This document shows positions 12,951 to 53,073 of a stretch of 64,000 bases of DNA, piece by piece; positions within the stretch are counted from its first letter, which is position 1; every line of letters starts with the position of its first letter. The DNA comes from Candidatus Micrarchaeota archaeon. GTDB taxonomy: Archaea; Micrarchaeota; Micrarchaeia; Anstonellales; Bilamarchaeaceae. Below the pieces are notes generated by a model that saw only the letters and a list, made by a program, of their open reading frames with translations, made no database searches and was not told the origin of the DNA. Both the position numbers and the translations under genes were made by a program. The stretch covers positions 284,778 to 348,777 of the forward strand of contig JACRGD010000007.1 in NCBI GenBank assembly GCA_016212525.1, read 5' to 3'.

Positions 12951-12964
12951 TATCAGGTGAAAAC

Positions 12965-36761: not shown

Positions 36762-37229
36762 ATGGCAAGCAGGAGAAGGCAAACCCCAGGTCATACAGAA
36801 GCCAAAGCTCCAGGACAGGATAAGGGAAACTTTGAAGCACTCTTAGTGGCAGTAAGTTCAACTAAAACCAGGGCACAAATAATCGAGGGCCTAAGAAAAA
36901 TGGGGCAGATAAGCGACACAACGATAGATATGCTTAGAATACCAGATAGACTGGAAGCTACCTCCAGAGCGTCTCCTTTTGAAATGGTTTTTTCAGAACG
37001 AAGCGAAGGTTTGCCAGAGGGAGCACTTGGAAGAATAGTCGGACACAATGCATCAGAGCCGGACTTAGATCAATATTTCCTTGCGATCTACGGAGAGGGA
37101 AACAAAGTCTATTTTATAGTCAATGACCCTCGAACTGGGCACGAACCAAGATGTGCATACGTGGGTGGAATATATACAGAAGAAGGAAAACTGCATTTTG
37201 ATAAAATAATCGGCCCGAGTATCAAATAG
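36762..37229 (+). CDS. Hypothetical protein (155 aa) with a basic disordered N-terminus, convergent with the giant-gene operon
   Basis: An ORF only. The N-terminus is MASRRRQTPGHTEAKAPGQDKG. No motif was recognised. Confidence 0.4.
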   Translation: MASRRRQTPGHTEAKAPGQDKGNFEALLVAVSSTKTRAQIIEGLRKMGQISDTTIDMLRIPDRLEATSRASPFEMVFSERSEGLPEGALGRIVGHNASEPDLDQYFLAIYGEGNKVYFIVNDPRTGHEPRCAYVGGIYTEEGKLHFDKIIGPSIK

Positions 37230-37313
37230 GCAAAAAAGTCATCAGATCCAACACGCCAAACACAAAGAATCAGACGACCAAAACGATTTTGTTGAACTTT
37301 GTCCACTTAATCA

Positions 37314-38189
37314 CTAATAGATTTCCAAGTTTGAAGGCAATGAAGCCGAATATGCCAGCTGTTTAGCCTCATCGCTTATTTTCCTAAATTCAGCCTCATC
37401 GAAAGAACCGGAAACACAACCCAGCGCCACATATTTTGGAAGAAGCTCAGTTAGATAAGCCAGATATCTTTTTTGATAGAATGCATATGCACGCCATTGA
37501 GATTCGCAGACCGGGCCGGCATAGTATTCATGAATGACGTCGGTAGAGGGTCTTGGAGCTCCACGCATATGAGAATAAACTTCTACATCAAAAAGAGCCC
37601 GATCGAAAAACTCATGCATCGGCAAGTGGGCATAGCCACGTGGGATGTATATTTGTGCACCTGGATTGTCAGAAACCAGTTGGAAAATCTGAGTTCGAAG
37701 ATCAACATCCCGTTCATAAGCGATTGCAGCGGATAATTTTAAGTCAGAAACGGGATTTGAAGGGCGATTTCGGGCCAAAAAATAAAGCCAGTTGGCAGAT
37801 AGGCTTAGTTTTTCAGGAGCAACTAAAACAGAACCGGGAGAATGTGAATTTTTATCCAAAACTGCATCAAGATAACCCCAGTCAAACCAATCACGATGAA
37901 CATTTGGAGCAATGCCCGCGTTCACTTTTGAAGTAAAACCATCATAAACAACATCATCTACTGCAGAAAGATGATCTTTCATTTGACCAAAGGCATTTGA
38001 AGGGGAAGAAGGGGTAAGGGTAGCAAAAAATTCAGGAACAATAATTTGACGTTGTGAAGGATTAGAAGCAAGAATTCTTTCGCCTATTTTTCCAAAAAAG
38101 TTTTTATCTGGGCCATATGGAACCGGACCAATAGCACCTGCATGTTCGCCAAAGAAAAAGACAAGGCGGGGCTTTCTGGAACAAAACAT
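37314..38189 (-). CDS. Hypothetical protein (291 aa), last gene of the giant-ORF cluster; weak Tiki/ChaN/erythromycin-esterase-like motif pair
   Basis: LVFFFGEHAG near the N-terminus and PRGYAHLP later recall the GExH...GxxH motifs of the Tiki/TraB/ChaN superfamily. This assignment is very tentative. It lies 31 nt downstream of the 167-aa gene. Confidence 0.45.
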   Translation of the reverse strand: MFCSRKPRLVFFFGEHAGAIGPVPYGPDKNFFGKIGERILASNPSQRQIIVPEFFATLTPSSPSNAFGQMKDHLSAVDDVVYDGFTSKVNAGIAPNVHRDWFDWGYLDAVLDKNSHSPGSVLVAPEKLSLSANWLYFLARNRPSNPVSDLKLSAAIAYERDVDLRTQIFQLVSDNPGAQIYIPRGYAHLPMHEFFDRALFDVEVYSHMRGAPRPSTDVIHEYYAGPVCESQWRAYAFYQKRYLAYLTELLPKYVALGCVSGSFDEAEFRKISDEAKQLAYSASLPSNLEIY

Positions 38190-38210
38190 AAATATGAATT
38201 AATTATAACA

Positions 38211-38218
38211 ATTTAAAA
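38211..38218 (-). promoter_or_regulatory. TATA-like box (TTTTAAAT) upstream of the 291-aa gene
   Basis: It lies 21 nt upstream of ATG 38189 in an AT-rich 31-nt spacer with no Shine-Dalgarno motif. The promoters at 36168 and 52547 have similar geometry. Confidence 0.3.
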
Positions 38219-38220
38219 GC

Positions 38221-38724
38221 CTATTTCCTAGCTCTTTTTGGAGGCAAAGGCTCCGGTGGAGTAATCTGACGAACACGAAGAGCAGGGGTCAGAGGAGGTG
38301 GATTTCTCATTAAAAGATCAGTAATGGGAGAATGAGTGGGTTTAAGGGATTTAAAAGCAGCAACTAAAGAAGAAGGCAGAGGAATCCCGTCATCGATAAA
38401 ACGTCTGGCGATTTTCACGGTTAAATCAAGATACGTCCGACGTGAACTCGAAGTAGATGAGGATGCTTTTAAAAGTAAATGAGACGTTGCAAAAGTAGCA
38501 ATAGTTTGCCAAAAAGAATCAAAAGAAGTATTTGAGATCAGCCCTAAAATCTCATCTGCGCCACCAGGGTTGGGATTAGCATCAAATTCAAGAATTTTTT
38601 TGGCAATATCATGAACTTTGCTCACGTCAGGATCTAAAGAAGACAAAGCAGACTGCTCTGAGTCGGACAACGATTCGGTCCTAAGAAGTTTTTCAAATAA
38701 CAGGGTAAGTTGGGAATATTCCAT
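38221..38724 (-). CDS. Hypothetical protein (167 aa) translationally coupled to the giant ORF; Pro-rich basic C-terminal tail
   Basis: A TAAATG junction links it to the giant ORF, and GGTGAT lies upstream. The tail is RNPPPLTPALRVRQITPPEPLPPKRARK. No family was recognised. Confidence 0.55.
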   Translation of the reverse strand: MEYSQLTLLFEKLLRTESLSDSEQSALSSLDPDVSKVHDIAKKILEFDANPNPGGADEILGLISNTSFDSFWQTIATFATSHLLLKASSSTSSSRRTYLDLTVKIARRFIDDGIPLPSSLVAAFKSLKPTHSPITDLLMRNPPPLTPALRVRQITPPEPLPPKRARK

Positions 38725-41700
38725 TTAATCACCACTAGTAGATCCTCCATGACGATGCGGAAAGAATAATCTTTCGCCCATTGTTCCAGGGTGGAAACCA
38801 TTTGTTCCGCCATCAGGCATAGCACGACGATTGCTGTCCATATATGCAAAAGGTGCACGAAGAGTAAATGTTGAGTAGCCTTGATTAAGTGGACGGTTCG
38901 CAGGAAGAACAGTGCCATTTGCCATAGTTCTGCTTTCGCCAGATAAAATTACTGGCTCAACGGAGGTGTCAGGCACAAGAGAAGGAGAATCAAGATCGTA
39001 AGAGCGAACTTCAACACCCAGTGGTTCATATCTAGAGCGGAGATTGGCAAGAATCTGGGCCTCAAGTTGTTGTCTTTGTTCAGAGGGAATATCTCTCAAA
39101 CCATAGGCAGGCTGGACCATTATAATGGGCCGACCATCATCGCCAATAAGAAGATTAAGAGTTTGCCGGTATAATGTGTTTGGAGATCCCTCAATTGGAA
39201 TAATTATCTGTCTGATCCAGGGTTGTGCAACAGAACCTACTATTCCTCCAACCACAGGATGTGTGTTTGTCGGGACCTGGCAGGCTTCATTACCAGCCAC
39301 AAGACCATAGCGGAAAGAACGATCGAAATCTCCGGTTTCGCTAACACGATATTGTCGGGTAGAGGAACCATCAGAAACACTAACCGAGAAATCATGGTTG
39401 TTGGTCCACATATTCCAGAGAGCACCAGAATCAACCGATGAATGAGAGCAGACACGATCAAGTTCAGCCCTAAATTCAGGAGGGAATTTAAAGTCCCTAA
39501 AAGTTCCGTTTGCATGGGCTGAGAGTGCACGATCAAGAACTGCGATGGCCTGGGTAAATTGAGCCGAAGTGGAGGTATGGGAACCTATACGCTCGGCCCC
39601 GCCATTAGCTAAAGCAGAGAGAGTATTGCGATAAGTTACATACTGAAGGAAAAGATCGACATTGGAGCTTAGCCATTCTTCAGTAAGATTTGCAGATGGA
39701 ACCAGAGTCCTAAATAGGCGAACACCAGCTTCAATAAATTGATCCGGATGAGCAGAGACACTGGCAATAAATTCGTTCAGTCGTAATGGAGAAATAGCAC
39801 CTGAGCGTGAAAACTCATAGATGCTGTTTATCATGCGGAACCTGCGGTTTATGAAATCGGCCCGGGCATCATCGACAACCCTGCCAGAACCCCTAAGCCG
39901 GCCTAGCTCACCTGATACAGAATCAAATACCCGATTTATTGCATCGGAATGTGCGATTCCAAGCAAACCAGAATAATAAGAGTCAAGAGATGTTTGAGTG
40001 TAGCGGGCAGGAGCAAGAAGACGAACCATAAATCTTCGTGAAGATGCAGGATCACTAAAGGTTGCATATTCCTGAGCATCATGCCTTACATATCCATCAA
40101 AGCGATAACCAACTTGTTCTGCCATGATACGCGGATGATGACCTACCCGCATAGTAGCTAACTCTGGACTAAGAGTAAAGGGAGTTGCAGAAGCAGGAAC
40201 CCCCTCTACAATAAGACCCTGATTACTTGCATCTGTATATTCAGAGCGCTCTCGAGCATAGTTAATTAATAACTGGGCAAAATCGGCATACGCACGATCG
40301 TTTGGCATGGCCTGTCTGATAAGCTTAACATCAAAAACCCTAAATGGATTTGAAGTCTGCGAACCAATCTGGGGACTCCTCAGCATAAGCTCTCCTAGAA
40401 TTGGGAGTCTGCGAATCCTTCTTGGATGCAAATCCCGATTTGCACCGACAACCAGAACTCCACTGTCTCTTGCCTGTGCATCTAATTCAGATACCCGGCC
40501 AAGAAGTTCTTCTGAATGCGAATAGTTTCGAGCGCACAAATCAAGATAGATTGATCTTAAACCCTCTGGCAATCTGGATGCGTCCTCAAGTGCCATCCTA
40601 AACATATTGCCAAGGGCAGCATGAGACTCTGGAGGACTTGATCTAAGGCTAGATGCAAAAAAAGAAAGGACTCCATTAATTGGTTCAAGATTATTTTGAG
40701 GTCTTGGAAACAGACTAAATAGATCAAAGCGCGAATCAGTAGATCCAAGTGCACTACCTACCAAAAGAGAGCTCAGGGATTCGGGATTTGTAACGGCCAG
40801 GCGGGCACAAACATAATAGAGATCGGCTGAACCGGACGTAATAGTAGTGGCATCGAAAGACTCGTATTGACTCCACACACGATATGAATACCTGATTGCC
40901 TCATAATATTCCGAATATACAGAATTAATTCTCTCTAAAGGCACGTGTTCGACAATATAACGGGCAGACTCAACGATACTATCGATACGACTACGATTAG
41001 GCCCGCTAAAACCAACGGCATGTTCAATATCCCGTGAGATCAAAGCAGAAATCATAGATGACTCAAGACAATCAGCCAAAGTCGGCTGCACATGACCTCT
41101 CGCCTGAGCATATCTCATAGCCAGAGCGGCACCAACCGCCAAATCAGGATCCGCATGCGGATTTGAAGCGGCTTGCTGAATCTGCTGGGCCCGGGACACC
41201 AGATCAGCGGAAATTTGGATTAGACGTGCAGTATAAGACAAAGAGGAACTTTCATTAGGGTAACCAAAAACAATATCCCTAAACATAGGATCTGACCTAT
41301 GAGATATAAAAAATTCCAGGGCAGGAGCATACTGGGCAGCTGCAACATCAGGAGCAACACCATGCGCAACTGCATCTCGAACCAGATCGCGCATTGCAAT
41401 AACAAGCGGCCCTCCTCTTTGAGCAACTATTTGGTCTGCTTGAGCACAAAGTTCGCGACCCAATGAAGATTCAGGAACATTTCTTAGGCGCCCTACAGAA
41501 GCGGCATAGTCAGGATGAACGCGCTCAACTTCCCGCATAGTAAGATTACCACTACGAACTTCATCAACCAGACGCCAGAGAAAAATTCCTACAGTTCGAT
41601 TATCATCGGTTAGATGGGGCATGAGCAAACTTCTCACTCTGGCCCAGGCCTGCTCGTTTGAGACAATATTGTGAACAACATCACGCTCGAGTGCTTCCAC

Positions 41701-44700
41701 AGTTGCCAGATCAACATTTGTTGAATTTGCTAAAATAGACTGAGCAACCACGCGAACAGATGGAGATGGAGGAGCAATAGAAGCTACTGGTTCAGAGGTT
41801 TGAGGTGCCCTGGCAGAAGCTCTCTGATCCAGAGCAGCCAAGGCACTGGAAATACCCGCCCTATAATAGGAGGCCCTTTCTTCAGAAGACACAGACGCGG
41901 GATCTACACACCGGACATAAATAGATGATTTTTCTTCTCCACGCTTAAGAGTAAAGCGAACATATGTTTCATCACCTACCTGAACGGCGCCATCGAATCG
42001 ATAGGCTGCACCATCAGAAGCAGTAACCTGAACAGCCCCAGGACTTAGATCGGACCCAAGAACTGCGCCAGGACTCCTTGCACGGCCACTAACAACAACT
42101 GCAGATTCTGGAAGATCAAGTAAAAAGTCGGCACTTGAGGTGGAAGTTGAGGTTGTAGTAGTCGATGAGGCCTGGGAAACCGGAGCAGTCCGAGACATTA
42201 CTGGAGGTTGAGGAGTCCGTGTGCTTGTGGCATCAGGCATGGCAGAGCGATTCTCGCCATCAGCGACGCCGGCAGCGAGCTGAGCTAGAGGTTCTGCCAC
42301 CTCCTGAACAGGAATCCTTGGAGCAACACGTGTTTCAACGCGATTAGGCCTTTGTGGAGAGGGTCTTTGATTTGGCGGAACAGTAGGCAACTCATCAACT
42401 TCGATAACTTCCGGCTCAGAACCGGGAGGATTGATTGTGGTTGGTCCCTGATGCCTGGCCGATTCGGCAAGCGGTCCCGGTCGTGCAGAAGCATCAAACA
42501 AATCTACACCAGTGTGTACCCGAAGCTCGTCTGCAGTAGTAAAGAACCGATCTGCATTTTCCCGGCTAACTCTGCCCGCAGACACTTCCACATCTAATCT
42601 TGCACGGACATATTCACGGTAGCCCGAACCATAACTCGCTCGTTGCTCAGCGGTAATAGTACCGGCAGTAACCATCGCATCCAGATCATGGTTCATCTGC
42701 TCCTGGGTAGTATGACGACCTTCAAGAACCATATAGCCGAACTGATTTGATACACCAAGTTCGGGATGATTGGGGTCATTAATTCCATAACCAACCCACT
42801 GGCCAGCAGTATTTGCCCGATAAAGAGCAGCTGCAACTTCGTACATATTATGAACATCGTTTCCGCTAATGTTTGGATCACTCTGCATGCCTAAATGAAG
42901 AAGGGCAACATCAGCAGCACCCTGCTCGAGCTGATTGTGCTGGGCTCGTGCCTGGGGAGTTCCCATTTCATTTTGCAGGTTTGCCATTTCATCTGCATGC
43001 ATTGTGAAGCGATAATTATTACGTGCAATTGGACGAGGGGCAACGTTTCCCTGATAGGTGAGATTGGCAACTGATGGAACTGCTCCAAGACCTCCAGTTG
43101 CAGTTGCAAGGCCATAAACTCCTCCATCATGATCTGCAAGGACACGCGCACGCGCTGCGGCCATTTCCGGAGTAACCGGACGTGGGGTCGATGAAACGTC
43201 CCTAGACGCAACTGCGGCGGAATGTGCAACCTCAACCGGAGTAACGGCAACCGGATCCTCTGGATGTGATGCATTGTAATTATCCAGACCAGTAGTAACA
43301 TCGCCTATCAAAAACTCAGAAGAGGCATTTCCAAAGTCCCGGTGCAACACAGAAACATCATGAACAGGATTTCCATTTGCATCACGGACCTGCTGGCCGT
43401 TTTGCATAACCGGCTCGATGCGCATTGCGACTCCATCCATATCAATCGCAACCGCTGCAGTTCGTACAACCGTGCCGTCTCTTAATCGACCTACAGCATA
43501 ACCGCTGTTGGCAGAACGACGATCGCCAAGTGCAATTTCACTTGCGGCATTATGATAATCATAAAGACTTCTGAAAAATTCGGATCGACCTTCTTCAGTT
43601 CGCATCTCATCGTAGAAAGCACGAACTGCCGGAGCTGATCTTGGATCATTCAATGCAACAGATGGCTCGTCAATTATCTCATCACTCATGAGGGCAAGAC
43701 CATCGATATACATTTCCCTTATTGTCCCATCAGGCATTCGGACATTCTGCCAGGTTCCAACTAAATCATGGATGTCCTGCATAATTCCGTAGTTGACCTG
43801 CTCGGGATTTCCACTCTGATAGGTTCTTCCATTTTCAAATGTATAGCCATGATAATGACGGGCAGTAAGAATACCTTGTGTACGGGCCAACTCTTCACCC
43901 AGCGCGGCAGCCTGTAGATCCTCAGTTTTGACAAATATTCTTCGAGTAGTTGATGGAGCACCATTTTCCCCGGGAATTTCAAGAGTAACTGCATATGCAC
44001 CACTAAGCCCTGCACGATAACTAACCCCGGTTATAGATGCCCTCTCAAATCCAGGTATCGTATGAATATTGTGTTCAAGTCCGCCAAGGGCAACCAAATC
44101 TGCAAATGCGCGGGCACCCTCAAGAGCCTGTGCCATAGTAAGGGAAGTAGGCTCACGATAAGTAATTCCACGAGAAGCCAAAAAGCCACAAATTCCCTCG
44201 AACTCGATTCGTTGCGGGACATTTAATCGGGCGATATTATTTACAGAGTGCTTCATTGCCGCAGTACCTGAAGAAACAAATGATGCTCTTAATTGTTGAA
44301 ATTGTTCCGGGGTTGCACCATGAGAAGTCAGAAGTGCATCCAGAGCATCAAGATTTCCCCCTGATAAAAAGGCATCACGCAGCTGGTTTTTGAGGGCATC
44401 CCTTCTCGCACCTGGTTCGTGAATTAGTGCGGTCGCTATTGCATCTGCACCACCTTCTGCATATTGCCTAAGAAGCATTCTTTGCATTTCTGGATTAATT
44501 GGTCCATGACCTTCTGCTGCAAAGGACATTTGCGCCCGCATCTGATCAACTGAAGCAGTTGCACCAGCCTGATCTAAAGTATGATTTAAGGCAGTTGTAG
44601 TATCAGCCAGACTAGTATTAAGACCCGCAAAACCGGAAGTTCTTAGTGCTTCAGTGAGCGCAGGAACATCAAAACCCAAAGCCGTCAGTTGAGGGGCAAC

Positions 44701-47700
44701 CGCAGGAATGCCACGATCAACATAGCCATTTCTCAGAGATTCTGCTGCATTTGGAGAATAATGCTGAGCCCTTCTTTCGCTTTCAGTAGTAGTTGTAGGG
44801 TTAGTACGCACTCGGCCACTTTCATTAAATGCAGTAACCCAGTCGTGGAAGAATCGCTGTTGTTGCAATGGATTTCGTTCGGCAAGACCAACTGCAAGGC
44901 TTCTTGCAAGAACCGGGTTTCCAGAAAATGATCGCAATGAATCGACCACAAGTCTTCCGGTTTCTTGACCCAATAGTTCGATCGCCCGGGCTTCGAATTG
45001 AGGCGAATTGATAGAGCGAATCAGATCTCTTCCTTGCTTTATCGATCCGTTTGGAGCGCGAAGATACTGATCTGAGAGAGTTGCAAGACCTTCTGCAGCA
45101 TGAGGATCCAAAAGTGCATGTGCCATATTAACCGCACGCTCTGCATATTCGGTCTCGGGTCTAGGCATCTGTGGCATCCGTGGAGCTGGCTGCTCACTAA
45201 ATCGGGCATAGGCAGTAGAAACCAACCCCGGTTCGCTAGCAGTACCGATTCCAAAGCCCCGCATATAAGCCTGGAATTGGGCAGGTGTTCCGCGAGCTGC
45301 GGCCCTAAATGCCTCGTTGGAAGTAAGCAAGCGAACGGCTTCCTGCCCAGAGGAAGATAGAGTTGCCAGAAGTGGATCGACACTACCCTCACGACGAACT
45401 GCCGCACGGGCCAGTGCTGCAAGATCTTCAACAGAGCGAATTTCAGATGGAACAGTAAACTCATGTCTTCTTCTTTGCTCAGCACGCCTGAGTCTGGCAA
45501 GCGGATCGGCGCGGGGAACGGAAGTTGTAGAAGTAACACCGGGAGCAACCGGCCTAAGCGGCGCTGGAGTAGCTGCAACCGGCGCAGGCAGAACTCCCGC
45601 CCTCACAAGCGCCTCATGGGTCAATCGTAATCTCACCGGATCAGTAGCCCGCTGGAATTCAGGACGATTAGAAAGTTCGGCTACAACGCGAGCAGTATTC
45701 AAAGTACCAAGTGGATTGGAATTTGCAGCTGGATCCATAACACGCAGATTTCGAAATGCTACCTGCTCAGTAACCGGACCGGAACTACTTGCAAGTGCAG
45801 CAGCACGGACAACCTGAGCAGTTTGAGTATCTGAAATCGGAATTGTAGTAAAATCATTGGCATATGCTACTGCAGCAAGTTCAGAAGTGCGACTATTCGC
45901 TCGCATAACTGGAGCATATACTTCATGAATCGCCAGTGCAACTACAGCCATTGCAGGCGTGAGAGTTGGTGAAGTTGTAACTGGAGCTTCAAGAGGACGA
46001 ATGGCAACAGGAACTTGCCTGGCAGTGCCAAGAACCCGAGTCTGTGGAGCGACCCGGGCAGTAGTTGGAGAAGTACCATTAAGACCAGAAACAAATTCTG
46101 GATTCGAAAGCAAAAGGAGCGCGAGAGTTCCGACATCTGCAGGCAGACCAGCCAGGCCAGCTGCACGCTGAGCCTGCTCACGGGTTACCACTGCTGTTGA
46201 TGAACCCCGCTGCTCATGCAAAGAAGTTGCAAGAGCAACTGCAGATCGTAAATTTTCCCGCTCTGCCGGAGGCATGTTTGCAAATACAGGATCAGATGAA
46301 TTTGAACCGGAAAATAGACGCTCTCTAGTACGCGCAAAGTTTTCCCTTGCAGCAGAAACGAAATCAGTAAGTTCGGGAGTAACACTTGAGTAGCCTTCCA
46401 AAGTACCTATGAGTGCCTGGGTATTTGGCAATGTCTCGGATTCAGAAATATGATGCGCAAGGAACAGCCGCTCGCCTGCGCTCAAATAGCGACCCAAAGT
46501 CGCCTCCACTGAACGAAGAGCTGCCTGACTAGAAGCCGGAAGAGCACCAAGTATTGCATCTGCATGCGCCTCATAAGCAGCAATTGCATGTGATAGAGCA
46601 ACCGGATCCCGGGCCAGTGCACTGCCCTCGCCAGAAATCATACGCAAAACATCATGACGTAATTCGAGACTGTCTGGAACTCCTGAGAGTGCCATTGCCC
46701 GATTGAAGTTCTCGCGCGTCTGTGCATCGAGGGATTGTGAAAGAGTTCTGACCCGCTCCGAAAGTCGGGCATTGTACATTTGAGCGGCCTGGTATCGATT
46801 GACACCGAAAAATCCAGCCATTGCAAATCGATAAGCTCTTGCACGGAAACTCGTTCCGAAAACCAATGAAGAATTGGCCTCACCGACAAGCTGGAAACCG
46901 CGCATCAAGCCAGGCTGGGCAGCATTGAAGAAAATCAGGCCATATTCAAATAGACCGGCTCCAGGATCACTATGCCATGTTTCATAAACAGAGCCCACAC
47001 CGATCGCAACTCCGCCAAGGCCCATAAAATAGGCCAGACCAGTATTGACTCGTTGGAGATTGAGAAGGGTGGCTTCGCCAACTAGGGCAGTCCCGCTAGG
47101 TGCGAGTTCGCCGCCAAGTTCAGTTGCCAGTCCACCTAAACCATGACTAACTACACCAATGCCGGCAAGCGCAATCCCACCAAGTCCCAAAACCCTCTGA
47201 AGAGTAGTGAGATTCTCTGCACCGCCAACAGCTCGGGCCTGATCGAAATAACCGAAGGTCGATTCGCCAAGGAAGAATGGCGCAACAAGAACACCAAAAC
47301 CAGTTGCAGAGGCAAAACCTGCACCAAGAATTCTTCCAGCCATAGCTACATTTGAATAAACCCGCTCGCGCCGAACACCGCGCTCGACAAACTCCGCTGA
47401 ATCATAACGCTGGGTTCTTGCATTATCAACGTTGGTTTCAATTGTCATAAGCTGGCCGGGACTAAGAACGCCACCGGGGCTTTGTGTAATTGTGGCAAAC
47501 GCAGTTCCCAAAAATCCGAATGATCTGGTAAGTGAATCGAATGAGGATTGAGCCTGCCTTGCAGACACAGAGCCCCTAAAAGTCAAATTAGTCGCACTGA
47601 ATCCCGGAGTAAGAGTCGCAACTGTATTTGTGAAATCATCATCAACCTGCTCACTGATAGAAAGAATGCGATCGATATGACGTCTCTGATCAACAGTATA

Positions 47701-50700
47701 TGAAACCGGACGATAATGAACGCGCGCAGTCGGATCAGTATTTGGGATAGCGGCAAAGCCCAGATCAGCAAATACAGCAGCAGTATGGACATCGGTGAGT
47801 GTCAGACGTGCAGGTAATCCAAGTAGGGAATACCTTTGATTCAACTGATCGGCACGTAATTGTCTAAATTGAGAAGGCAAGGTACCGTCTTCAATGGAAG
47901 CGGCAACGTGAGTTGGATCTGCAATTGCACTGCCACCAAGCAGACCAAATTGATGCGCGCGATCTCGCATGACCGTGGCACCTTGAGGATCTAAGCGACC
48001 TGCAGCGTAGAGCCGATCTGCAGCAGCAAGAACAGTTGATTCTTCGCTTGCCATATGAAGTGCAACGTCACGTGCAGTCTCAGTTACTGATAAACGTCTA
48101 AGTCCATCAACATGATCTGCCTGAACCAAAAGGAACCGCTCTGCAGTTTCGCTAAGATCGCCCCGCGCTCGCAATAGACCAGTTCCACGGCGAAGCAGAT
48201 CAGGATGATGCAAAAGATAATCCATGACAGCAGTATCGCCACCAGTTTGAAGGGCATCGGCGAGTGCGTGCATGTGAACTGCGTATTGACGATCAACTCC
48301 GCCAAGGCCACGAGTCGGACCCGCGTCGCCCAGTTCAGTTACAATGCTTCGTGTGATCTCAATTGGAACCATATCACTTGCAGAGTTAAGATTTTCCCGC
48401 GCAGCAGCAAGAGCATGTGCTCGCTGCTCGGCTGCATTTGCATCAGCAGTTGCAGTGGCTGCAACCTGATCCAGATTTGCATCGCGCCGAACCTGTGCAC
48501 CATTTGGACTTAGAGTCCGATGGCCATGCGCATCAACATCATAATACACCCCTGCATATTGGCGGGCAGCAGCACGAAGAGCATCGGCAGTCCTTTGATT
48601 AGCCGTCTCCATATTGTAGAGCGTCTGACGCCCCTGATAAGTGGGAATAATGTTGGTTGAAAGATCATCGAAAAGCAGGTTGCCCGCCTGGACATGACCC
48701 GCCTCAATTTGACGTAGGGCCCGACCGGCCTGTCCCAAGAGGAACGCAGTGTCAAATTCTGCCATGCTTCCAGCTTCACGCTCCTCTGGACTGGCCTGTG
48801 CCAGCAGAACATCATGAGCACCAAATAGACCGACACGGATACTGCGCTCTCGAACCCGACCAGCTACACGCATTATTAATCGCTGTGCAGCTGCCAAATG
48901 ACCAGACCGGGCCTCGACTCTTGCACGCTCAAGATCATTATGTAAAGCCTGACCATCCACAATTGCAGTCGTGGTCGGGGCCAGATGATATCCGCCATCG
49001 CCATGAAGAACTACTTCCCGATCATGCATGACTCTGCCTGAAGAATCAGTAACCGAGGCAACAAGTTCCGTAACACTGCCATCAGCAGAAGTCGCAGTTC
49101 GCACAAGCCGGGCAGCCATATTGCGAATCGCAATAATTCGGGTTACCTGAGCATAGCCGGAACTAAAATCATGTCCTGCATCGCGAAGCCGATCCTGATT
49201 CAATTGGACAAACCCCGAACTCATAGGTTCAGTTCTGGATCCAACTTCAGAAATAGTTTGCTCGAAATTATCAGCAGCCCGAACCAATGCGAATCGGCCT
49301 GCAGTAGAGGGAACTGAACCGGCTGAAGTTACAACGTCCCGATGGAGCATGAAAGTTGCATTAGAGAGACCCAGACTGGCCTGATGCAGCATATTTGCCT
49401 GGGCCGTTAAATCCCGCGCATGCCTGCGCAAAATTTCGATCGCAAAGGCCTGATCATCATGGCCGGTTTCCCTCCTTGCAGTTTCTATTGCCGCAGCATA
49501 TTCAGGGCCACTTAGAGTAATTGCTGCCCTCTGATACAAAGCAGCTTCTGCAAATCTCGCCCCTGCCAGGTCGAGTGCACCCTGTGCATGAGTCATCCGC
49601 TCGCTTGCACGCACTGGATCAATAAGAGCTGCTTCACGGGAATAGAGAAGCATGTGAGAGGGGTTGGATGCACCAGAAGAAAATCTTCTTAATCGTGCAG
49701 ACTCACGCGCATAAGCCCTGGAAGTCGCTCCAAGAGCCATAGACTGGGTTCGCAATTCTGCACGAGCGTGCTCAAGCCGCATTTCCAAAGCGGAAAGATC
49801 GGCTTCTAAAATTTCACAAAGCTGGATTTGTGCAGAAAGAGCCTCGGAATAGACATGAGGCTCGCCATTTTCATTACGAACCATTGATGAACTACGCTGG
49901 CCCTCATAGCTCAGAGAAGGATTAAGTGACAGAATAATTGCACCGAAACTTTCTCCAGAGCGCATGCGGCGCTCCAGTTCAGCAAGTGGAGGAATTTGGA
50001 TTCCACTGGAAGTAGTAAAACCATGTTCATATTGGGCTGCAATTGTTGGATCATGACTAGCTGCAGCAAGAGTAACACTGTCAGCCATTGCACCAAGGAC
50101 TCCGATGTTTGCGCCCTGGCCGTTTTGAACCTCTAATAGAGAAAGTCGGGTAAAGCGGCCAAACATTGCACGTGCAGCCGGATCAGTAATTGCAGCAAGA
50201 GGAGCGCCACGGCTTAGATAGATCTGAGCTGCATTAAGTGATTCAGTTACGTTGGAATAGGTATTTGGATTGTTAATATTTCGACCAATTTCCAAGCGAT
50301 CCGGAGAATTGGTAGAATATGCCTGTGCAAATAGAAGAGCTGAAACTGCATGTGGCAAATCAGAAGTGAAGATCGAATCAAGTGCTGCTGCATAGTAACG
50401 GGCGGCATCTGCACGATTAGCAGGCGGTGCATGCGAAAGCGATTCGCGGGCATTTTCCAATTGAGATGAATACGAAGCGATTACTGGAGCAGATTGATCT
50501 GGACCAGATATCGCAATATGCCGAATCTGGGCAGAACTACCAAACAAAAGCGCAGTAGCCAAACGTAGTCTTTGCAGCTCTGAATCAGCAATTGTTTCAC
50601 CCCTATTGAGAATAGAAAGGGCATCATTAAGACGACCCAAAAGCCTCTGATATGCAGGATAGAGTTCACCGCATGCACGACGGTTTCTACATAAGACCTC

Positions 50701-52206
50701 AAGCCGATATCGGGATTCGCTAAGTGCAGTGACAGTTGAAAGGCGGGACATATTGAGATTTTGCTCAGAGGCAGCAGCCAAAATGACAGATCGGGATTGT
50801 TGATCGCCATGAAGATAAGCACGGGAAGCACCAAAGAGAGAACTGATTTGTTCAAATGGTGAGCCCGCGCCGATGTGAGCAAATAAATTAGCAATTATGC
50901 GGTTGTATCCACTAAGAGATTCTGCTCCAAAGTTACGTGGAATTCCAGAGCGGTCAGACGCAACTTCATGGGCAATTTCAACAAAACCAAAAATACGCTG
51001 GATGTTTTGAGAAGTAGGATCGAGTCGCAAGAGAGCAGCTCTGGTCTGCCTGAATTGTTCAGATAGTACTGCATCAGAGGGAACCTGAACTGCGGCTAAA
51101 AGAGTTTGAGTAAGAGAATGGATATCTGGATTTGGACCAAGAAGGGCAGCGATAAAGTTACGATCGGCAGGAAGATGGCCAAGTGAAATTGCTCTCGCAC
51201 TAAGAGAAATAAACTGGGCCAGCTCAGATTGCCCTGCAAGGGAAAATTCGATCGATCGTGTGCAAAGAGAAATGACATCGCGTCTTGGTGATTGGGATAA
51301 AATCTCAGTTGCACTTTCAAGTGCACCTCCAATTGAACTGAGGGTTTCAAGACCTGCACGATTTGGTAATCGACCCGAAGAAAGCGAATTTTGAATAGCC
51401 TCGAGCCGTTCTCGGGCGGCCTCCAATTGCCTTGAGAGAGCAGGATCCAGATTCCGCTCCATCAGATCGTCGCAATGACCTATGAGTCGCTCGACCCGCT
51501 CTGCGGTATTGGACCTTGCAAGAGTCAGATATTCTAAAAGAGAAGAATTTGAAGCGCGAAGGTTAGTAAGTAAAAATTCATTTGTTACTGAGGTATTTGA
51601 AAAATGTCTAAACACGGAACCATATTCAGGAAGCGCAGCCTGATCCAAAGATAAGACATCATGATTAGTCAGAAGAAGACCCACATAAGAGAGAGTAGAG
51701 GTTAGAAGCTCGGCATTTGGAGTCGAAGGATTTAGTGATCGAACAAAAGCAGCTCGAACCCCGGCAATCTCAGCTTGATCAAATCCAGCTTCGCGCATAT
51801 GCTGGACTGTTTCGACCAGAGATCCAAAATTTTCGACGCCAGCCCTAAGGGCATCACGCGCGGCAGGAGTAGGCGAACGCGCATAAGTTTGTGCAAGACC
51901 AGTAAGCGCACTAATTTCAGGGTTAAACTCCCTCTCAGCAGTGGCATCGAGCATACTTCGGACAAGACGCTCGACATAAGATGGAGTCGGAGGCAAAGTA
52001 CCTGCAAGTTGCCGTCCAAGATCCCGCACTGATTCGCGGGCAGCGTCTGCACGGGCAGCCGCATCGGAGAGGGGTGAGGATGCAGTTGGCTGACGGGTTG
52101 TGGGAGCACCTACAAGGGGAGCCAATGATTCACGCAGATGATCGGTAGCCTGGGCAGCTTGTTGATCAGCCAATTGTTCAGGAGTACGAAAATTTGGTCC
52201 AACCAT
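38725..52206 (-). CDS. Giant protein (4,493 aa) of unknown family: a lysine-depleted, Ala/Arg/Ser/Leu-rich multidomain protein
   Basis: A single uninterrupted 13,482-nt ORF with TAAATG coupling at both ends. Codon and amino-acid usage differ visibly from the flanks. There is no N-terminal signal peptide. Its sub-features are listed separately. Confidence 0.85.
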   Translation of the reverse strand: MVGPNFRTPEQLADQQAAQATDHLRESLAPLVGAPTTRQPTASSPLSDAAARADAARESVRDLGRQLAGTLPPTPSYVERLVRSMLDATAEREFNPEISALTGLAQTYARSPTPAARDALRAGVENFGSLVETVQHMREAGFDQAEIAGVRAAFVRSLNPSTPNAELLTSTLSYVGLLLTNHDVLSLDQAALPEYGSVFRHFSNTSVTNEFLLTNLRASNSSLLEYLTLARSNTAERVERLIGHCDDLMERNLDPALSRQLEAARERLEAIQNSLSSGRLPNRAGLETLSSIGGALESATEILSQSPRRDVISLCTRSIEFSLAGQSELAQFISLSARAISLGHLPADRNFIAALLGPNPDIHSLTQTLLAAVQVPSDAVLSEQFRQTRAALLRLDPTSQNIQRIFGFVEIAHEVASDRSGIPRNFGAESLSGYNRIIANLFAHIGAGSPFEQISSLFGASRAYLHGDQQSRSVILAAASEQNLNMSRLSTVTALSESRYRLEVLCRNRRACGELYPAYQRLLGRLNDALSILNRGETIADSELQRLRLATALLFGSSAQIRHIAISGPDQSAPVIASYSSQLENARESLSHAPPANRADAARYYAAALDSIFTSDLPHAVSALLFAQAYSTNSPDRLEIGRNINNPNTYSNVTESLNAAQIYLSRGAPLAAITDPAARAMFGRFTRLSLLEVQNGQGANIGVLGAMADSVTLAAASHDPTIAAQYEHGFTTSSGIQIPPLAELERRMRSGESFGAIILSLNPSLSYEGQRSSSMVRNENGEPHVYSEALSAQIQLCEILEADLSALEMRLEHARAELRTQSMALGATSRAYARESARLRRFSSGASNPSHMLLYSREAALIDPVRASERMTHAQGALDLAGARFAEAALYQRAAITLSGPEYAAAIETARRETGHDDQAFAIEILRRHARDLTAQANMLHQASLGLSNATFMLHRDVVTSAGSVPSTAGRFALVRAADNFEQTISEVGSRTEPMSSGFVQLNQDRLRDAGHDFSSGYAQVTRIIAIRNMAARLVRTATSADGSVTELVASVTDSSGRVMHDREVVLHGDGGYHLAPTTTAIVDGQALHNDLERARVEARSGHLAAAQRLIMRVAGRVRERSIRVGLFGAHDVLLAQASPEEREAGSMAEFDTAFLLGQAGRALRQIEAGHVQAGNLLFDDLSTNIIPTYQGRQTLYNMETANQRTADALRAAARQYAGVYYDVDAHGHRTLSPNGAQVRRDANLDQVAATATADANAAEQRAHALAAARENLNSASDMVPIEITRSIVTELGDAGPTRGLGGVDRQYAVHMHALADALQTGGDTAVMDYLLHHPDLLRRGTGLLRARGDLSETAERFLLVQADHVDGLRRLSVTETARDVALHMASEESTVLAAADRLYAAGRLDPQGATVMRDRAHQFGLLGGSAIADPTHVAASIEDGTLPSQFRQLRADQLNQRYSLLGLPARLTLTDVHTAAVFADLGFAAIPNTDPTARVHYRPVSYTVDQRRHIDRILSISEQVDDDFTNTVATLTPGFSATNLTFRGSVSARQAQSSFDSLTRSFGFLGTAFATITQSPGGVLSPGQLMTIETNVDNARTQRYDSAEFVERGVRRERVYSNVAMAGRILGAGFASATGFGVLVAPFFLGESTFGYFDQARAVGGAENLTTLQRVLGLGGIALAGIGVVSHGLGGLATELGGELAPSGTALVGEATLLNLQRVNTGLAYFMGLGGVAIGVGSVYETWHSDPGAGLFEYGLIFFNAAQPGLMRGFQLVGEANSSLVFGTSFRARAYRFAMAGFFGVNRYQAAQMYNARLSERVRTLSQSLDAQTRENFNRAMALSGVPDSLELRHDVLRMISGEGSALARDPVALSHAIAAYEAHADAILGALPASSQAALRSVEATLGRYLSAGERLFLAHHISESETLPNTQALIGTLEGYSSVTPELTDFVSAARENFARTRERLFSGSNSSDPVFANMPPAERENLRSAVALATSLHEQRGSSTAVVTREQAQRAAGLAGLPADVGTLALLLLSNPEFVSGLNGTSPTTARVAPQTRVLGTARQVPVAIRPLEAPVTTSPTLTPAMAVVALAIHEVYAPVMRANSRTSELAAVAYANDFTTIPISDTQTAQVVRAAALASSSGPVTEQVAFRNLRVMDPAANSNPLGTLNTARVVAELSNRPEFQRATDPVRLRLTHEALVRAGVLPAPVAATPAPLRPVAPGVTSTTSVPRADPLARLRRAEQRRRHEFTVPSEIRSVEDLAALARAAVRREGSVDPLLATLSSSGQEAVRLLTSNEAFRAAARGTPAQFQAYMRGFGIGTASEPGLVSTAYARFSEQPAPRMPQMPRPETEYAERAVNMAHALLDPHAAEGLATLSDQYLRAPNGSIKQGRDLIRSINSPQFEARAIELLGQETGRLVVDSLRSFSGNPVLARSLAVGLAERNPLQQQRFFHDWVTAFNESGRVRTNPTTTTESERRAQHYSPNAAESLRNGYVDRGIPAVAPQLTALGFDVPALTEALRTSGFAGLNTSLADTTTALNHTLDQAGATASVDQMRAQMSFAAEGHGPINPEMQRMLLRQYAEGGADAIATALIHEPGARRDALKNQLRDAFLSGGNLDALDALLTSHGATPEQFQQLRASFVSSGTAAMKHSVNNIARLNVPQRIEFEGICGFLASRGITYREPTSLTMAQALEGARAFADLVALGGLEHNIHTIPGFERASITGVSYRAGLSGAYAVTLEIPGENGAPSTTRRIFVKTEDLQAAALGEELARTQGILTARHYHGYTFENGRTYQSGNPEQVNYGIMQDIHDLVGTWQNVRMPDGTIREMYIDGLALMSDEIIDEPSVALNDPRSAPAVRAFYDEMRTEEGRSEFFRSLYDYHNAASEIALGDRRSANSGYAVGRLRDGTVVRTAAVAIDMDGVAMRIEPVMQNGQQVRDANGNPVHDVSVLHRDFGNASSEFLIGDVTTGLDNYNASHPEDPVAVTPVEVAHSAAVASRDVSSTPRPVTPEMAAARARVLADHDGGVYGLATATGGLGAVPSVANLTYQGNVAPRPIARNNYRFTMHADEMANLQNEMGTPQARAQHNQLEQGAADVALLHLGMQSDPNISGNDVHNMYEVAAALYRANTAGQWVGYGINDPNHPELGVSNQFGYMVLEGRHTTQEQMNHDLDAMVTAGTITAEQRASYGSGYREYVRARLDVEVSAGRVSRENADRFFTTADELRVHTGVDLFDASARPGPLAESARHQGPTTINPPGSEPEVIEVDELPTVPPNQRPSPQRPNRVETRVAPRIPVQEVAEPLAQLAAGVADGENRSAMPDATSTRTPQPPVMSRTAPVSQASSTTTTSTSTSSADFLLDLPESAVVVSGRARSPGAVLGSDLSPGAVQVTASDGAAYRFDGAVQVGDETYVRFTLKRGEEKSSIYVRCVDPASVSSEERASYYRAGISSALAALDQRASARAPQTSEPVASIAPPSPSVRVVAQSILANSTNVDLATVEALERDVVHNIVSNEQAWARVRSLLMPHLTDDNRTVGIFLWRLVDEVRSGNLTMREVERVHPDYAASVGRLRNVPESSLGRELCAQADQIVAQRGGPLVIAMRDLVRDAVAHGVAPDVAAAQYAPALEFFISHRSDPMFRDIVFGYPNESSSLSYTARLIQISADLVSRAQQIQQAASNPHADPDLAVGAALAMRYAQARGHVQPTLADCLESSMISALISRDIEHAVGFSGPNRSRIDSIVESARYIVEHVPLERINSVYSEYYEAIRYSYRVWSQYESFDATTITSGSADLYYVCARLAVTNPESLSSLLVGSALGSTDSRFDLFSLFPRPQNNLEPINGVLSFFASSLRSSPPESHAALGNMFRMALEDASRLPEGLRSIYLDLCARNYSHSEELLGRVSELDAQARDSGVLVVGANRDLHPRRIRRLPILGELMLRSPQIGSQTSNPFRVFDVKLIRQAMPNDRAYADFAQLLINYARERSEYTDASNQGLIVEGVPASATPFTLSPELATMRVGHHPRIMAEQVGYRFDGYVRHDAQEYATFSDPASSRRFMVRLLAPARYTQTSLDSYYSGLLGIAHSDAINRVFDSVSGELGRLRGSGRVVDDARADFINRRFRMINSIYEFSRSGAISPLRLNEFIASVSAHPDQFIEAGVRLFRTLVPSANLTEEWLSSNVDLFLQYVTYRNTLSALANGGAERIGSHTSTSAQFTQAIAVLDRALSAHANGTFRDFKFPPEFRAELDRVCSHSSVDSGALWNMWTNNHDFSVSVSDGSSTRQYRVSETGDFDRSFRYGLVAGNEACQVPTNTHPVVGGIVGSVAQPWIRQIIIPIEGSPNTLYRQTLNLLIGDDGRPIIMVQPAYGLRDIPSEQRQQLEAQILANLRSRYEPLGVEVRSYDLDSPSLVPDTSVEPVILSGESRTMANGTVLPANRPLNQGYSTFTLRAPFAYMDSNRRAMPDGGTNGFHPGTMGERLFFPHRHGGSTSGD
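39964..40107 (-). repeat. Internal protein module copy 2 (aa 4034-4081)
   Basis: YRFDGYVRHDAQEYATFSDPASSRRFMVRLLAPARYTQTSLDSYYSGL shares the YRFDG, Y.(T/R)F, VR, (P/A)A and SYY.G positions with copy 1. It starts 632 residues downstream of copy 1. Confidence 0.6.
41854..42003 (-). repeat. Internal protein module copy 1 (aa 3402-3451): YRFDG...VR...P...SYY.G
   Basis: YRFDGAVQVGDETYVRFTLKRGEEKSSIYVRCVDPASVSSEERASYYRAG aligns by eye with copy 2. Confidence 0.6.
42130..42490 (-). other. Pro/Ser/Thr-rich low-complexity linker in the giant protein
   Basis: The sequence is ARPGPLAESARHQGPTTINPPGSEPE...PPNQRPSPQRPNR...TRTPQPPVMSRTAPVSQASSTTTTSTSTSS. Confidence 0.6.
43400..44040 (-). other. PI3K/PI4K-like (atypical kinase) motif region of the giant protein (about aa 2723-2935)
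   Basis: RRIFVKTEDLQAAALGEEL (K2760) resembles IFKxGDDLRQDxL. ALGDRRSAN (D2895...N2900) resembles GDRHxxN. AIDMDG (D2922/D2924) resembles IDFG. The order and spacing match a kinase catalytic core. Confidence 0.4.
46800..47360 (-). other. Central Gly-rich hydrophobic cluster of the giant protein (about aa 1616-1802), putative membrane-insertion module
   Basis: Hydrophobic stretches include AMAGRILGAGFASATGFGVLVAPFFLG, VLGLGGIALAGIGVVSHGLGGLA, GLAYFMGLGGVAIGVGSVY, GLFEYGLIFFNAA and AYRFAMAGFFGV. GxxxG motifs recur. This is the only strongly hydrophobic region in the protein. Confidence 0.55.
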
Positions 52207-52524
52207 TTAGTTCACACTCTGATAGCAGAAAATTACAAACTCCTGCAAATTTTTAATGCGCTCATAAGAGGGAGCATTAGAACTACGAAGAATGAGAGTC
52301 TGACGGGTCCAGTGTTCAAGATCAGAAAGAAACCGCTTATGTTTTTGAAAAGAATTTGCATATTTTTCTTTTTCCTTTGAACCTTCCCAGATCGCAATAG
52401 CACCAGAAAGAGAAGTCAGAGTCAGATTTACTTTTTGAATTACAAGTTCCTCAACCTGATCGAGATTTTTCTCACTAACACCACCATCAACTCCCAGCAG
52501 GGAGGCCAAAGTCTGATCTGCCAC
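52207..52524 (-). CDS. Hypothetical protein (105 aa), first gene of the giant-ORF operon
   Basis: It has a GTG start with no Shine-Dalgarno motif and a TATA-like box at leaderless distance. Its stop TAA abuts the giant ORF ATG. No family was recognised. Confidence 0.5.
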   Translation of the reverse strand: MADQTLASLLGVDGGVSEKNLDQVEELVIQKVNLTLTSLSGAIAIWEGSKEKEKYANSFQKHKRFLSDLEHWTRQTLILRSSNAPSYERIKNLQEFVIFCYQSVN

Positions 52525-52839: not shown

Positions 52840-53073
52840 GTGAACTTTGAGATGTACAAGTTATCGGCAACAGTAGAGAAAGATGGAAAATGGTACGTGG
52901 CCCATTGTATGGAACTACAGATAACTAGTCAGGGCAAAACAGTTGAAGAAGCACTGGCAAATCTAAAAGAAGCACTAGAACTATATGTAAAAAATGCTGA
53001 TTCGGATGAACTGGAACACCTAAAAACAGCCCATGATGAAGCTCCCTTAATTGCCACCATAACCGTGGGTTAA
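52840..53073 (+). CDS. hicB: HicB-family antitoxin (UPF0150-type, short form)
   Basis: Contains YKLSATVEKDGKWYVAHCMELQITSQGKTVEEALANLKEALELYV, the typical HicB N-domain. The start is either GTG 52840 or ATG 52852. It overlaps hicA by 1 nt. Confidence 0.75.
   Translation: MNFEMYKLSATVEKDGKWYVAHCMELQITSQGKTVEEALANLKEALELYVKNADSDELEHLKTAHDEAPLIATITVG

Follow-up and report, generated by a model that had tools for sequence, protein, structure and literature searches.

Lysine-purged giant proteins of Micrarchaeota and their lysine-normal paralogues

A giant gene in a 64,000-nucleotide stretch of a Candidatus Micrarchaeota archaeon genome (hereafter the window; GenBank assembly GCA_016212525.1, contig JACRGD010000007.1, positions 284,778 to 348,777 of the forward strand) encodes a protein that is nearly devoid of lysine. 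The source genome was viewed through this 64-kb window only. The protein is recorded as MBI5223501.1 (HY990_03690; organism, Candidatus Micrarchaeota archaeon) and belongs to a family of Micrarchaeota giants that occurs in two states, lysine-purged and lysine-normal. We are highly confident that lysine was removed by protein-specific selection. This selection acts either at the protein level or on the codon in its reading frame, and lysine was mostly replaced by arginine, glutamine, and threonine. Among the possible causes, we rank first the evasion of lysine-directed tagging in a host cell, with a probability of roughly 0.35-0.4; the whole explanation, in which the nature of the giant, the selection, and its proposed cause are taken together, is given about 0.4.

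Translation of the giant gene (38725-52206, reverse strand) gave 8 lysines (0.18%) and 397 arginines (8.84%) in 4,493 residues. This exact recount agreed with the initial annotation, in which eight lysines had been counted by hand, each listed with its sequence context, and arginine had been described as very frequent. The lysines are residues 2390, 2606, 2652, 2760, 3421, 3426, 3961, and 4240. The first lysine codon lies at 45039-45037 (SIKQG) and residues 1-2389 contain no lysine, as had been claimed. A lysine desert has been defined operationally as a run without lysine that is 150 residues or longer, or that takes up 50% or more of the sequence (PMC10665810, PMC10169902); the present run of 2,389 successive residues, 53% of 4,493, falls within both parts of this definition. 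The 40 other open reading frames (ORFs) in the window average 7.5% lysine, with a lysine share of lysine plus arginine, K/(K+R), of 0.61, and the small proteins of the same operon have ordinary lysine contents (Table 1). Both observations had been made previously from the sequence and were borne out here. At the window ratio of 0.61, the chance of finding 8 or fewer lysines among the 405 lysine and arginine residues of the giant is ~3e-147. At a ratio of 0.2, which we chose ourselves as a stand-in for a high-GC lineage, it is ~2e-28.

The relatives of this protein carry the argument for selection. Four genomes (L088, L089, L092, and L093) encode giants of both kinds on one contig, and the two are equal in GC content at third codon positions (GC3) and in the fraction of arginine codons of the AGR type (AGA or AGG). 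In a single Micrarchaeota metagenome-assembled genome, the purged P0008 (0.3% lysine) and the normal P0010 (8.8% lysine in the part held by the locus, 6.6% overall) are encoded seven genes apart on one contig. Their GC3 values are 0.81 and 0.80, and their AGR fractions are 0.58 and 0.61, respectively. The two proteins are collinear over 3,302 aligned columns with 40% identity. At the 196 aligned lysines of P0010, P0008 has 7 lysines, 60 arginines, and 129 other residues, and 7 of the 10 aligned lysines in P0008 are also lysine in P0010.

One segment of ~420 residues in this pair (P0008 residues 2918-3340, L088 ~12200-13500; P0010 residues 3870-4290) is 83% identical, whereas identity outside it is 20-45%. 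Of its 70 substitutions, 8 give a lysine to the normal copy and 0 do the reverse. The segment carries a classical kinase-like VAVKVFK motif and, even within the normal P0010, is lysine-poor (2.6%). This pattern suggests a recent transfer of the segment from the purged P0008 to the normal P0010. When lysine was recoded as arginine in all sequences, the best matches of purged proteins were purged and those of normal proteins were normal, with the exception of P0010, for which the best match was P0008. Since the recoded purged proteins are mutual best matches, the purged state is old and has been maintained down to 25-30% identity. The simplest reading is that of two old paralogue lineages with occasional segment exchange. 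Repeated independent switching between the two states, which was considered on the basis of a rough tree of the kinase-like domain, is disfavoured by this whole-protein comparison; with two old lineages and exchange, the interleaving in that tree would reflect exchange instead of switching.

The GC3 of the giant gene (0.33) is within the range of its neighbours (0.29-0.49), while its total GC is 0.49 against ~0.41 in the surroundings. The higher total GC is attributable to the amino acids of the giant, namely, alanine, arginine, and glycine. The initial annotation had argued that a moderate GC shift alone should not remove lysine to this degree. The latter part holds, as judged from GC3, the paralogue pairs, and the codon counts described below; however, the difference in GC is not a mutational shift, but follows from the amino acid content.

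The usage of AAA and AAG (AAR) supports the same conclusion. Out of frame, these triplets occur 130 times (frame +1) and 159 times (frame +2) in the giant gene, which is near or above the codon-shuffle expectation. In every lysine-purged relative examined, AAR depletion was likewise confined to the reading frame, with out-of-frame counts at, near, or above expectation, and in frame it affected both AAA and AAG. We therefore rejected the avoidance of AAA/AAG as a nucleotide motif; selection must act on the codon as it is read or on the protein. Furthermore, purged giants keep hundreds of AGA and AGG arginine codons (up to 625 in P0005), each a single transition away from a lysine codon. Since so many AGR codons have not drifted to lysine, the lysine-free state must be actively maintained.

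The window giant differs from the rest of the window in codon usage, with T-ending codons at 0.44 versus 0.28, CGN at 71% versus 47% of arginine codons, and an AGR fraction of 0.29 versus 0.53. A general switch of purged giants from AGR to CGN, by which they would stay far from lysine codons, was considered and rejected; it is seen in the window gene only, and the paralogue pairs have equal AGR fractions. The purged giants of other genomes are not set apart from their neighbours or paralogues by codon usage in the manner of the window giant. Its locus was possibly acquired from another low-GC Micrarchaeota genome, given this codon usage of its own. Purged giants occur in genomes of ~42-65% GC (the window, L001, L085, L090, L089, L088, and L083). 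Pure compositional bias, or descent from a high-GC, lysine-poor donor lineage, might have been suspected from the total GC and the distinct codon preferences of the window giant, and the initial annotation had named the K/R ratio of such a donor as a refuting alternative; nevertheless, it is effectively excluded by a K/(K+R) of 0.02, far under 0.2 (P ~2e-28), by the matching GC3, the wide GC range of the purged giants, and normal out-of-frame AAR counts, and above all it is refuted by lysine-normal paralogues with the same contig, GC3, and codon usage.

We searched 1.84 billion representative proteins exhaustively with a profile and obtained 29 family proteins (P0002-P0030, of which P0002 is the window protein), mostly of 3,000-7,300 residues. 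All members with an organism name are assigned to Micrarchaeota, Micrarchaeia, or Bilamarchaeum. A word-index search with a 650-residue query found a single fragment (P0001; 54% identical), the only lysine of which, in 776 residues, is that of the VFVK motif, and a scan of genome contigs with the giant found no relative. The lysine content of the family is bimodal, at ~0.1-0.3% or ~5-10%. The purged members P0002, P0003, P0004, P0005, P0006, and P0008 contain 0.10-0.31% lysine and have lysine-free runs of up to 3,492 residues, while the lysine-normal members, eleven other giants of more than 3,000 residues, contain 5.3-10.6%. Four members, three short sequences and P0027, are intermediate (2.9-4.6%). 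Purged giants were also found on metagenome contigs: that on L085 has at least 5,815 residues with 8 lysines, 717 arginines, and a GC3 of 0.34 next to neighbours with 5-8% lysine, and that on L083 has at least 5,995 residues with 16 lysines on a contig of 65% GC. Thus, lysine depletion in homologues, a point that had been raised previously, was found in P0003, P0004, P0005, P0006, P0008, L083, L085, and the second giant of L092, and the lysine-free state is kept in these down to ~25-30% identity.

Lysine alone differs strongly between the purged and normal classes (-7.3 points), and the deficit is offset by arginine (+3.9), glutamine (+1.7), and threonine (+1.7). Cysteine is nearly absent from purged and normal giants alike (0.02-0.3%), and tryptophan is also low. 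As a side observation, the homologue on L001, a 2.6-kb metagenome contig, has an in-frame TAA at 2342-2344, after which homology resumes; P0003 has glutamine at this position. This TAA may stem from a sequencing error, mark a pseudogene, or reflect variation between strains.

The few lysines that survive are not a random remainder. Lys2760 of the window giant (IFVK, 43938-43927) is conserved in the closest homologue, in which Lys2390, Lys2606, and Lys2652 are replaced by arginine. The kinase-like domains of purged members contain a single lysine each, that of the VFVK motif (two in P0008), while those of normal members contain 6-32. Lys4240 (EFKF) is invariant in the C-terminal domain across both lineages. 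Four of the eight lysines in the window giant are common to P0003 and three to P0004. At least three retained lysines are conserved, and two of them are also invariant or nearly so in lysine-normal relatives. The initial annotation had proposed that only functionally essential lysines were kept and had pointed to the IFVK lysine of a kinase-like region. Both points gained support: the lysines that persist across relatives are the conserved ones, presumably functional (Lys2760 and Lys4240), and the IFVK lysine corresponds to the nearly invariant lysine of a PI3K-like domain according to the family alignment, AlphaFold, and Foldseek.

The giant is a multi-domain and, as judged from its sequence, probably membrane-inserting protein. 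It consists of an N-terminal helical region of ~1,600 residues, a hydrophobic block, a cargo region with the kinase-like domain, and a conserved C-terminal domain. Searches against Pfam, NCBIfam, and PDB sequences returned no match for it, and no signal-peptide-like hydrophobic start was read at its N terminus. The N-terminal regions align among family members. In the hydrophobic block, a Kyte-Doolittle scan passed two segments (residues 1626-1647 and 1668-1693); the other putative helices, and the likeness of the block to P0003-P0005, were recognised by visual inspection. A profile search with the block returned three proteins only, in which the relatives recovered were P0003 and P0005.

Family members carry one to three copies of the kinase-like domain. 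In the alignment of this domain, the residues of the glycine loop are invariant and K77 is nearly so; D212 and N217 (DRxxxN) and D239 are invariant and D241 (IDxD) is nearly invariant. From the order of these motifs, K77 may bind ATP, D212 and N217 may form the catalytic loop, and D239 and D241 may bind metal. AlphaFold modelled the domain on the family alignment with high confidence (pLDDT 92.9, pTM 0.87); a model from a two-sequence alignment (pLDDT 46) was discarded. All of the top 50 Foldseek matches in the PDB are PI3-kinases (p110 gamma, delta, and beta, and Vps34; probability 0.94-1.0, E ~3e-4), with low TM-scores of 0.29-0.37, and a viral library yielded matches to protein and PI kinases. 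With the cut-off relaxed to E = 10, PF00454 still had no match among the 29 domain sequences; no member matched any other kinase profile, and a profile search of PDB sequences with the domain returned no kinase. According to the predicted structure, the domain is a divergent PI3K-like kinase fold and not a member of the curated family. Other enzyme domains were detected in relatives (Metallophos in P0015 and a weak PIN domain in P0006), and their sequences, inspected by eye, show HExxH motifs and a further kinase-like segment, of the classical VAVK type. The C-terminal domain also occurs as a stand-alone ORF of 293 residues (L093 3715-4596), which is 41% identical to the C terminus of P0014.

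Regarding the cause of the purge, we propose that the purged paralogue is active in a setting in which every free epsilon-amino group puts it at risk. Its workplace would most likely be at or inside the host cell, where a lysine-directed system would otherwise mark or inactivate it. Candidate systems are ubiquitin-like conjugation that feeds the proteasome and a Bil-like conjugating defence. Its lysine-normal counterpart would be spared this exposure. Archaea have lysine-directed ubiquitin-like (Ubl)-proteasome pathways (PMC4569737, PMC4895103), and bacteria conjugate Ubl proteins to the proteins of invaders as a defence (10.1101/2023.09.04.556158, PMC10557695). Since arginine preserves the charge, we infer that selection is directed at the epsilon-amino group. 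In addition, a purge down to a handful of mostly conserved lysines appears to fit a model in which any accessible lysine is a liability better than it fits cost saving. Several features are in keeping with an effector-like role at or inside another cell, namely, the DPANN lifestyle, the hydrophobic block and enzyme cargo of the giant, its very low cysteine content, and the partner and arrayed small ORFs; the lack of an N-terminal signal peptide, as read from the sequence, was counted as a further feature of this type. The initial annotation had inferred that the protein survives in a compartment or target cell with lysine-directed conjugation or lysine-specific proteolysis, and a DPANN symbiont with an effector-like giant and its putative membrane-insertion block is a setting that agrees with this idea.

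Three points weigh against the evasion of tagging in a host, the first two being the main weakness. The explanation presumes that the purged giant leaves the cell or meets a host, and the membrane topology of the giant is putative. Lysine-normal paralogues have the same architecture and domains, which raises the question of why only one would be lysine-free if both were delivered. Moreover, conjugation to serine, threonine, cysteine, or the N terminus would not be escaped by the loss of lysine. A more elaborate version, which we consider rather unlikely, is a two-part giant apparatus in which the normal paralogue stays with the symbiont and the purged one is inserted or injected into the host archaeon, where its kinase and other domains would act and the loss of lysine would counter Ubl-proteasome immunity of the host.

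After tagging evasion, we rank resistance to proteolysis or chemistry, independence from lysine, self-protection, and evasion of the archaeon's own turnover, each of which agrees with most of the data. The first of these is unlikely, but the best placed. It holds that the giant resists lysine-directed proteolysis or amine-reactive conditions at the cell surface or a cell-cell interface, with arginine keeping the charge without a reactive amine, and follows the same all-or-none logic as tagging. Other very long Micrarchaeota ORFs, probably for surface proteins, are also lysine-poor (~0.8-1.3%), the family is cysteine-poor like many exported proteins, and some relatives have HExxH motifs (by eye). 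However, these probable surface proteins are also low in arginine and, thus, show no replacement of lysine by arginine, and the exported or membrane-type ORFs in the window are unpurged (3.5-5.5% lysine). The absence of a signal peptide and a cargo of an ATP-dependent kinase-like and other cytoplasmic-type enzyme domains also do not fit this explanation, and trypsin-like proteases cut at arginine as well.

Less likely still is that the purged paralogue is an isoform whose synthesis can continue under a shortage of lysine or charged tRNA-Lys, during tRNA-Lys cleavage, or in the presence of ribosome-dependent RNases specific for lysine codons. Paired paralogues of the same architecture, one lysine-rich and one lysine-free, are what this model expects, and the strictly in-frame depletion of both AAA and AAG fits it. 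A giant with 7% lysine would cost 300-500 lysines per molecule, DPANN archaea rely on hosts for metabolites (PMC12892359), and a HicAB module adjoins the giant gene. In contrast, the partner ORF in the same operon contains 6-13% lysine and the downstream ORFs are also lysine-normal, and so expression of the operon would still need Lys-tRNA. Sparing the last ~10 lysines in 6,000 residues saves nothing, the remaining lysines are largely conserved, and there is no reason for lysine alone to be limiting.

Two further explanations rank slightly lower again and are equally improbable. One is self-protection from a lysine-directed activity (acyl transfer, cross-linking, ligation, or lysine-specific cleavage) of the giant itself, the normal paralogue, or a co-delivered factor. 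Components of lysine-conjugating machinery are enriched in lysine deserts (PMC10169902, PMC10665810), purged and normal giants consistently occur together, and the family has many unassigned domains and motifs. On the other hand, no lysine-directed enzyme domain was identified in the family, the kinase-like and C-terminal domains are present in both lineages, and no activity specific to the purged members was seen. The other is evasion of the archaeon's own Ubl-proteasome system or other lysine-dependent turnover, such that the purged giant is long-lived and the normal paralogue is turned over. It invokes the same chemistry as the evasion of tagging in a host without the need for export, and archaeal Ubl-proteasome pathways are known (PMC4569737, PMC4895103). 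However, there is no apparent reason for one of two similar giants to need such protection, and the effector-like features stay unexplained.

Several known systems resemble the giants in part. Lysine deserts have been described in eukaryotic ubiquitin-proteasome components and in the proteomes and phages of pupylating Actinobacteria (PMC10665810, PMC10169902), and archaea are not mentioned in PMC10665810. As in the giants, they are long, conserved lysine-free regions that have been read as avoiding lysine-directed conjugation. The giants differ in that they belong to an archaeal DPANN symbiont, run to 2,389-3,492 successive residues in proteins of 4,000-7,300 residues, which is approximately ten times the usual length, have arginine in place of lysine within folded enzyme domains and not just in disordered ones, and are accompanied by a lysine-normal paralogue in the same genome. 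Lysine deserts are thereby extended to archaea and to stretches of 2,400-3,500 residues; to our knowledge, none longer is known.

Lysine-poor catalytic chains of AB toxins (ricin A, cholera toxin A1, and pertussis S1) are said to have been described by Hazes and Read in 1997 and by Deeks et al. in 2002. In these toxins, an enzyme enters a foreign cytosol, lysine has been replaced by arginine, few lysines are kept, and the loss has been read as an escape from ubiquitin-dependent degradation; the likeness to the giants is one of logic only. No receptor-binding B moiety was recognisable in the giant, and the known partners of the Micrarchaeota lineage are archaea and not eukaryotes (PMC12892359). 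The toxin chains are small and enter eukaryotes through retrotranslocation from the endoplasmic reticulum, whereas the giant shows no A-B architecture, its delivery is putative, and its target is presumed to be archaeal.

The SPEARE giant proteins of Nanohaloarchaeota, reportedly described by Hamm et al. in 2019, are likewise very large, lineage-specific, and multi-domain, belong to host-dependent archaea, and are suspected of host interaction. However, no sequence relationship to them or to other DPANN giants described so far was found, and serine protease, adhesion, and restriction endonuclease domains were not detected in the giant with Pfam or NCBIfam. We know of no report of lysine purging in SPEARE proteins. 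The N-terminal regions that align among members, the varying enzyme domains, and the arrayed small neighbouring genes, which recall immunity genes or chaperones, are reminiscent of multi-effector giant toxins and polymorphic toxin systems (MARTX, Rhs/CDI, and polyvalent proteins of mobile elements), although delivery of the giants is putative; nevertheless, we found no homology to these and no known secretion system, and an immunity role of the small ORFs would be purely conjectural. Giant DPANN proteins have been discussed (PMC10266531), and our literature searches returned no report of lysine-purged giants in DPANN archaea.

The kinase-like domain resembles PI3K/PI4K lipid kinases in its predicted fold, a lysine on a beta-strand (VFVK-EDL), a DRxxxN catalytic loop, and an IDxD metal-binding motif, but differs from them in that it has no PF00454 or PDB sequence match, gives TM-scores of only 0.29-0.37, and does not conserve the histidine of DRHxxN. 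Phosphoinositide kinases among bacterial effectors include LepB and MavQ of Legionella. Paralogues that spare an element offer another parallel: sulfur-depleted phycobiliproteins and yeast Pdc6 were reportedly described by Mazel and Marliere in 1989 and by Fauchon et al. in 2002, respectively. Sulfur-depleted isoforms are induced under sulfur starvation. These also form pairs, of which one is stripped of a residue type; in contrast, the operon mates of the giants are undepleted, and the purge halts at a few mostly conserved lysines and not at a cost optimum.

The paralogues constitute a natural experiment, in which a single genome maintains one giant architecture both with lysine and without it. 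This coexistence of the two states would pin selection on the epsilon-amino group and not on composition, expression level, or fold. The means by which DPANN archaea manipulate their hosts are largely unknown, and no effector with a clear signature is available. If tagging evasion is the cause, it would imply ubiquitin-like immunity or quality control between archaeal cells, and lysine purging may allow whole genomes to be screened for delivered proteins. If the two-part apparatus is real, it would be the first evidence of lysine-directed Ubl immunity in an archaeon-archaeon symbiosis and provide a signature for DPANN effectors. Furthermore, the kinase-like domain represents a new PI3K-like family, as judged from its predicted fold, that current profile libraries do not recognise.

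The unit around the giant gene spans ~36762-52524 of the window; its features and those of related loci are listed in Table 1. A small ORF of 97-124 residues lies just upstream of every giant with its start on the contig (the window, L088 [two], L089, L090, L092 [two], and L093), and six of the seven outside the window match the 105-residue ORF of the window in BLAST. The exception, a 106-residue ORF ahead of P0011 (L092), had no BLAST match and was assigned by position and size only. The K/(K+R) values of the partner ORFs are 0.67, 0.55, 0.54, 0.43, and 0.74 for purged giants and 0.16, 0.25, and 0.40 for normal giants; in this sample of five versus three, the bias of the partner ORF is opposite to that of its own giant, without overlap. 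The 167-residue ORF downstream of the giant had no detected homologue. The family of the 155-residue ORF (~146-223 residues) forms multi-copy arrays in L088, L089, L092, and L093, in which as many as seven paralogues, none with a Pfam match, are placed between the giants or after them on the other strand. These arrays recall those of immunity genes, and the family may possibly encode an immunity or adaptor protein. Upstream of the operon, both members of the HicAB module have 77 residues; the HicB-like antitoxin matched DUF7387 and, weakly, PHD_like and UPF0150, and the HicA toxin matched PF07927 (E 4e-17).

Table 1. Coordinates of the giant gene, its parts, and associated features. Positions refer to the window unless a contig is named.
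Feature	Location	Strand	Remarks
Giant gene	38725..52206	-	4,493 aa, 8 Lys, 397 Arg; lysine-purged type of the Micrarchaeota giant family
Lysine-free stretch	45040..52206	-	Residues 1-2389, 53% of the protein; spans the N-terminal helical region and hydrophobic block
Glycine-rich hydrophobic block	46897..47352	-	~Residues 1619-1770; 3-4 putative membrane helices
PI3K/PI4K-like kinase domain	43330..44157	-	Residues 2684-2959, one Lys; from alignment, AlphaFold, and Foldseek
Lys2760 codon	43927..43929	-	Nearly invariant Lys of the kinase-like domain (IFVK)
Conserved C-terminal domain	38752..39663	-	Residues 4182-4485; invariant Lys4240 (EFKF) and invariant Cys-Gln pair
105-aa partner ORF	52207..52524	-	Ends directly at the start codon of the giant; Lys 7.6%
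167-aa ORF	38221..38724	-	Starts directly after the stop codon of the giant; Lys 6.0%
291-aa accessory ORF	37314..38189	-	Lys 4.1%; homologues beside giants in L090 and L093
155-aa ORF	36762..37229	+	Family adjoins giants in all five loci
HicB-like antitoxin and HicA toxin	52840-53306	+	Directly upstream of the operon of the giant, after the acylphosphatase gene
Partner ORFs, L088 and L089	L088 3118-3459, 26404-26742; L089 9552-9926		
Partner ORFs, L090, L092, and L093	L090 4652-4945; L092 7680-8000, 29290-29616; L093 7256-7609		
Arrays of the 155-aa ORF family	L089 5416-9430, 31905-33575; L092 26214-29111; L088 23273-24340		
Long ORFs low in Lys and Arg	L015 1995-6617; L018 16356-19763; L019 1-9447; L020 2-5233; L023 16008-19421		

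The window also contains genes for a thermosome, SRP54, and other archaeal housekeeping functions, and an Rfam search of it returned nothing. The window thermosome shares 64-83% identity with its counterparts in 80 GTDB species genomes. By far the most of these genomes carry the label Micrarchaeota, Micrarchaeia, Bilamarchaeaceae, or Anstonellales, and the rest Candidatus ainarchaeum sp. or archaeon. Most Micrarchaeota are thought to be host-dependent, and their putative hosts are Thermoplasmatales and Sulfolobales (PMC12892359). The order SRP54-thermosome-acylphosphatase is kept in the thermosome relatives, but the metal-transport genes past the acylphosphatase gene are not. Conservation of the giant beside the thermosome in other Micrarchaeota was rejected, since none of the 80 loci contains it. 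Long ORFs near the thermosome elsewhere in Micrarchaeota are surface-protein-like and low in both lysine (0.8-1.3%) and arginine, a pattern unlike the replacement of lysine by arginine in the giants.

Two other ORFs in the window are rich in arginine and poor in lysine. That at 59363-60160 (forward strand; 1.9% lysine, 10.6% arginine) has a hydrophobic N terminus ending in cysteine, and that at 56947-57909 (forward strand; 4.1% lysine, 11.9% arginine) has an HEHELVH motif; neither had a Pfam match. No homology was found between these ORFs and the giants or lysine-poor ORFs near other giants, and the search for a wider set of homologous lysine-poor small proteins near giants found none. Positions 1-30400 of the window hold a large sugar-nucleotide and glycosylation cluster, nearly all on the forward strand and with a strong positive AT skew (0.2-0.29). 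It includes cytidylyltransferases, one fused to a class-III aminotransferase and one to a GFO/IDH/MocA oxidoreductase, as well as a SIS domain protein, a PfkB kinase, and a polysaccharide flippase.

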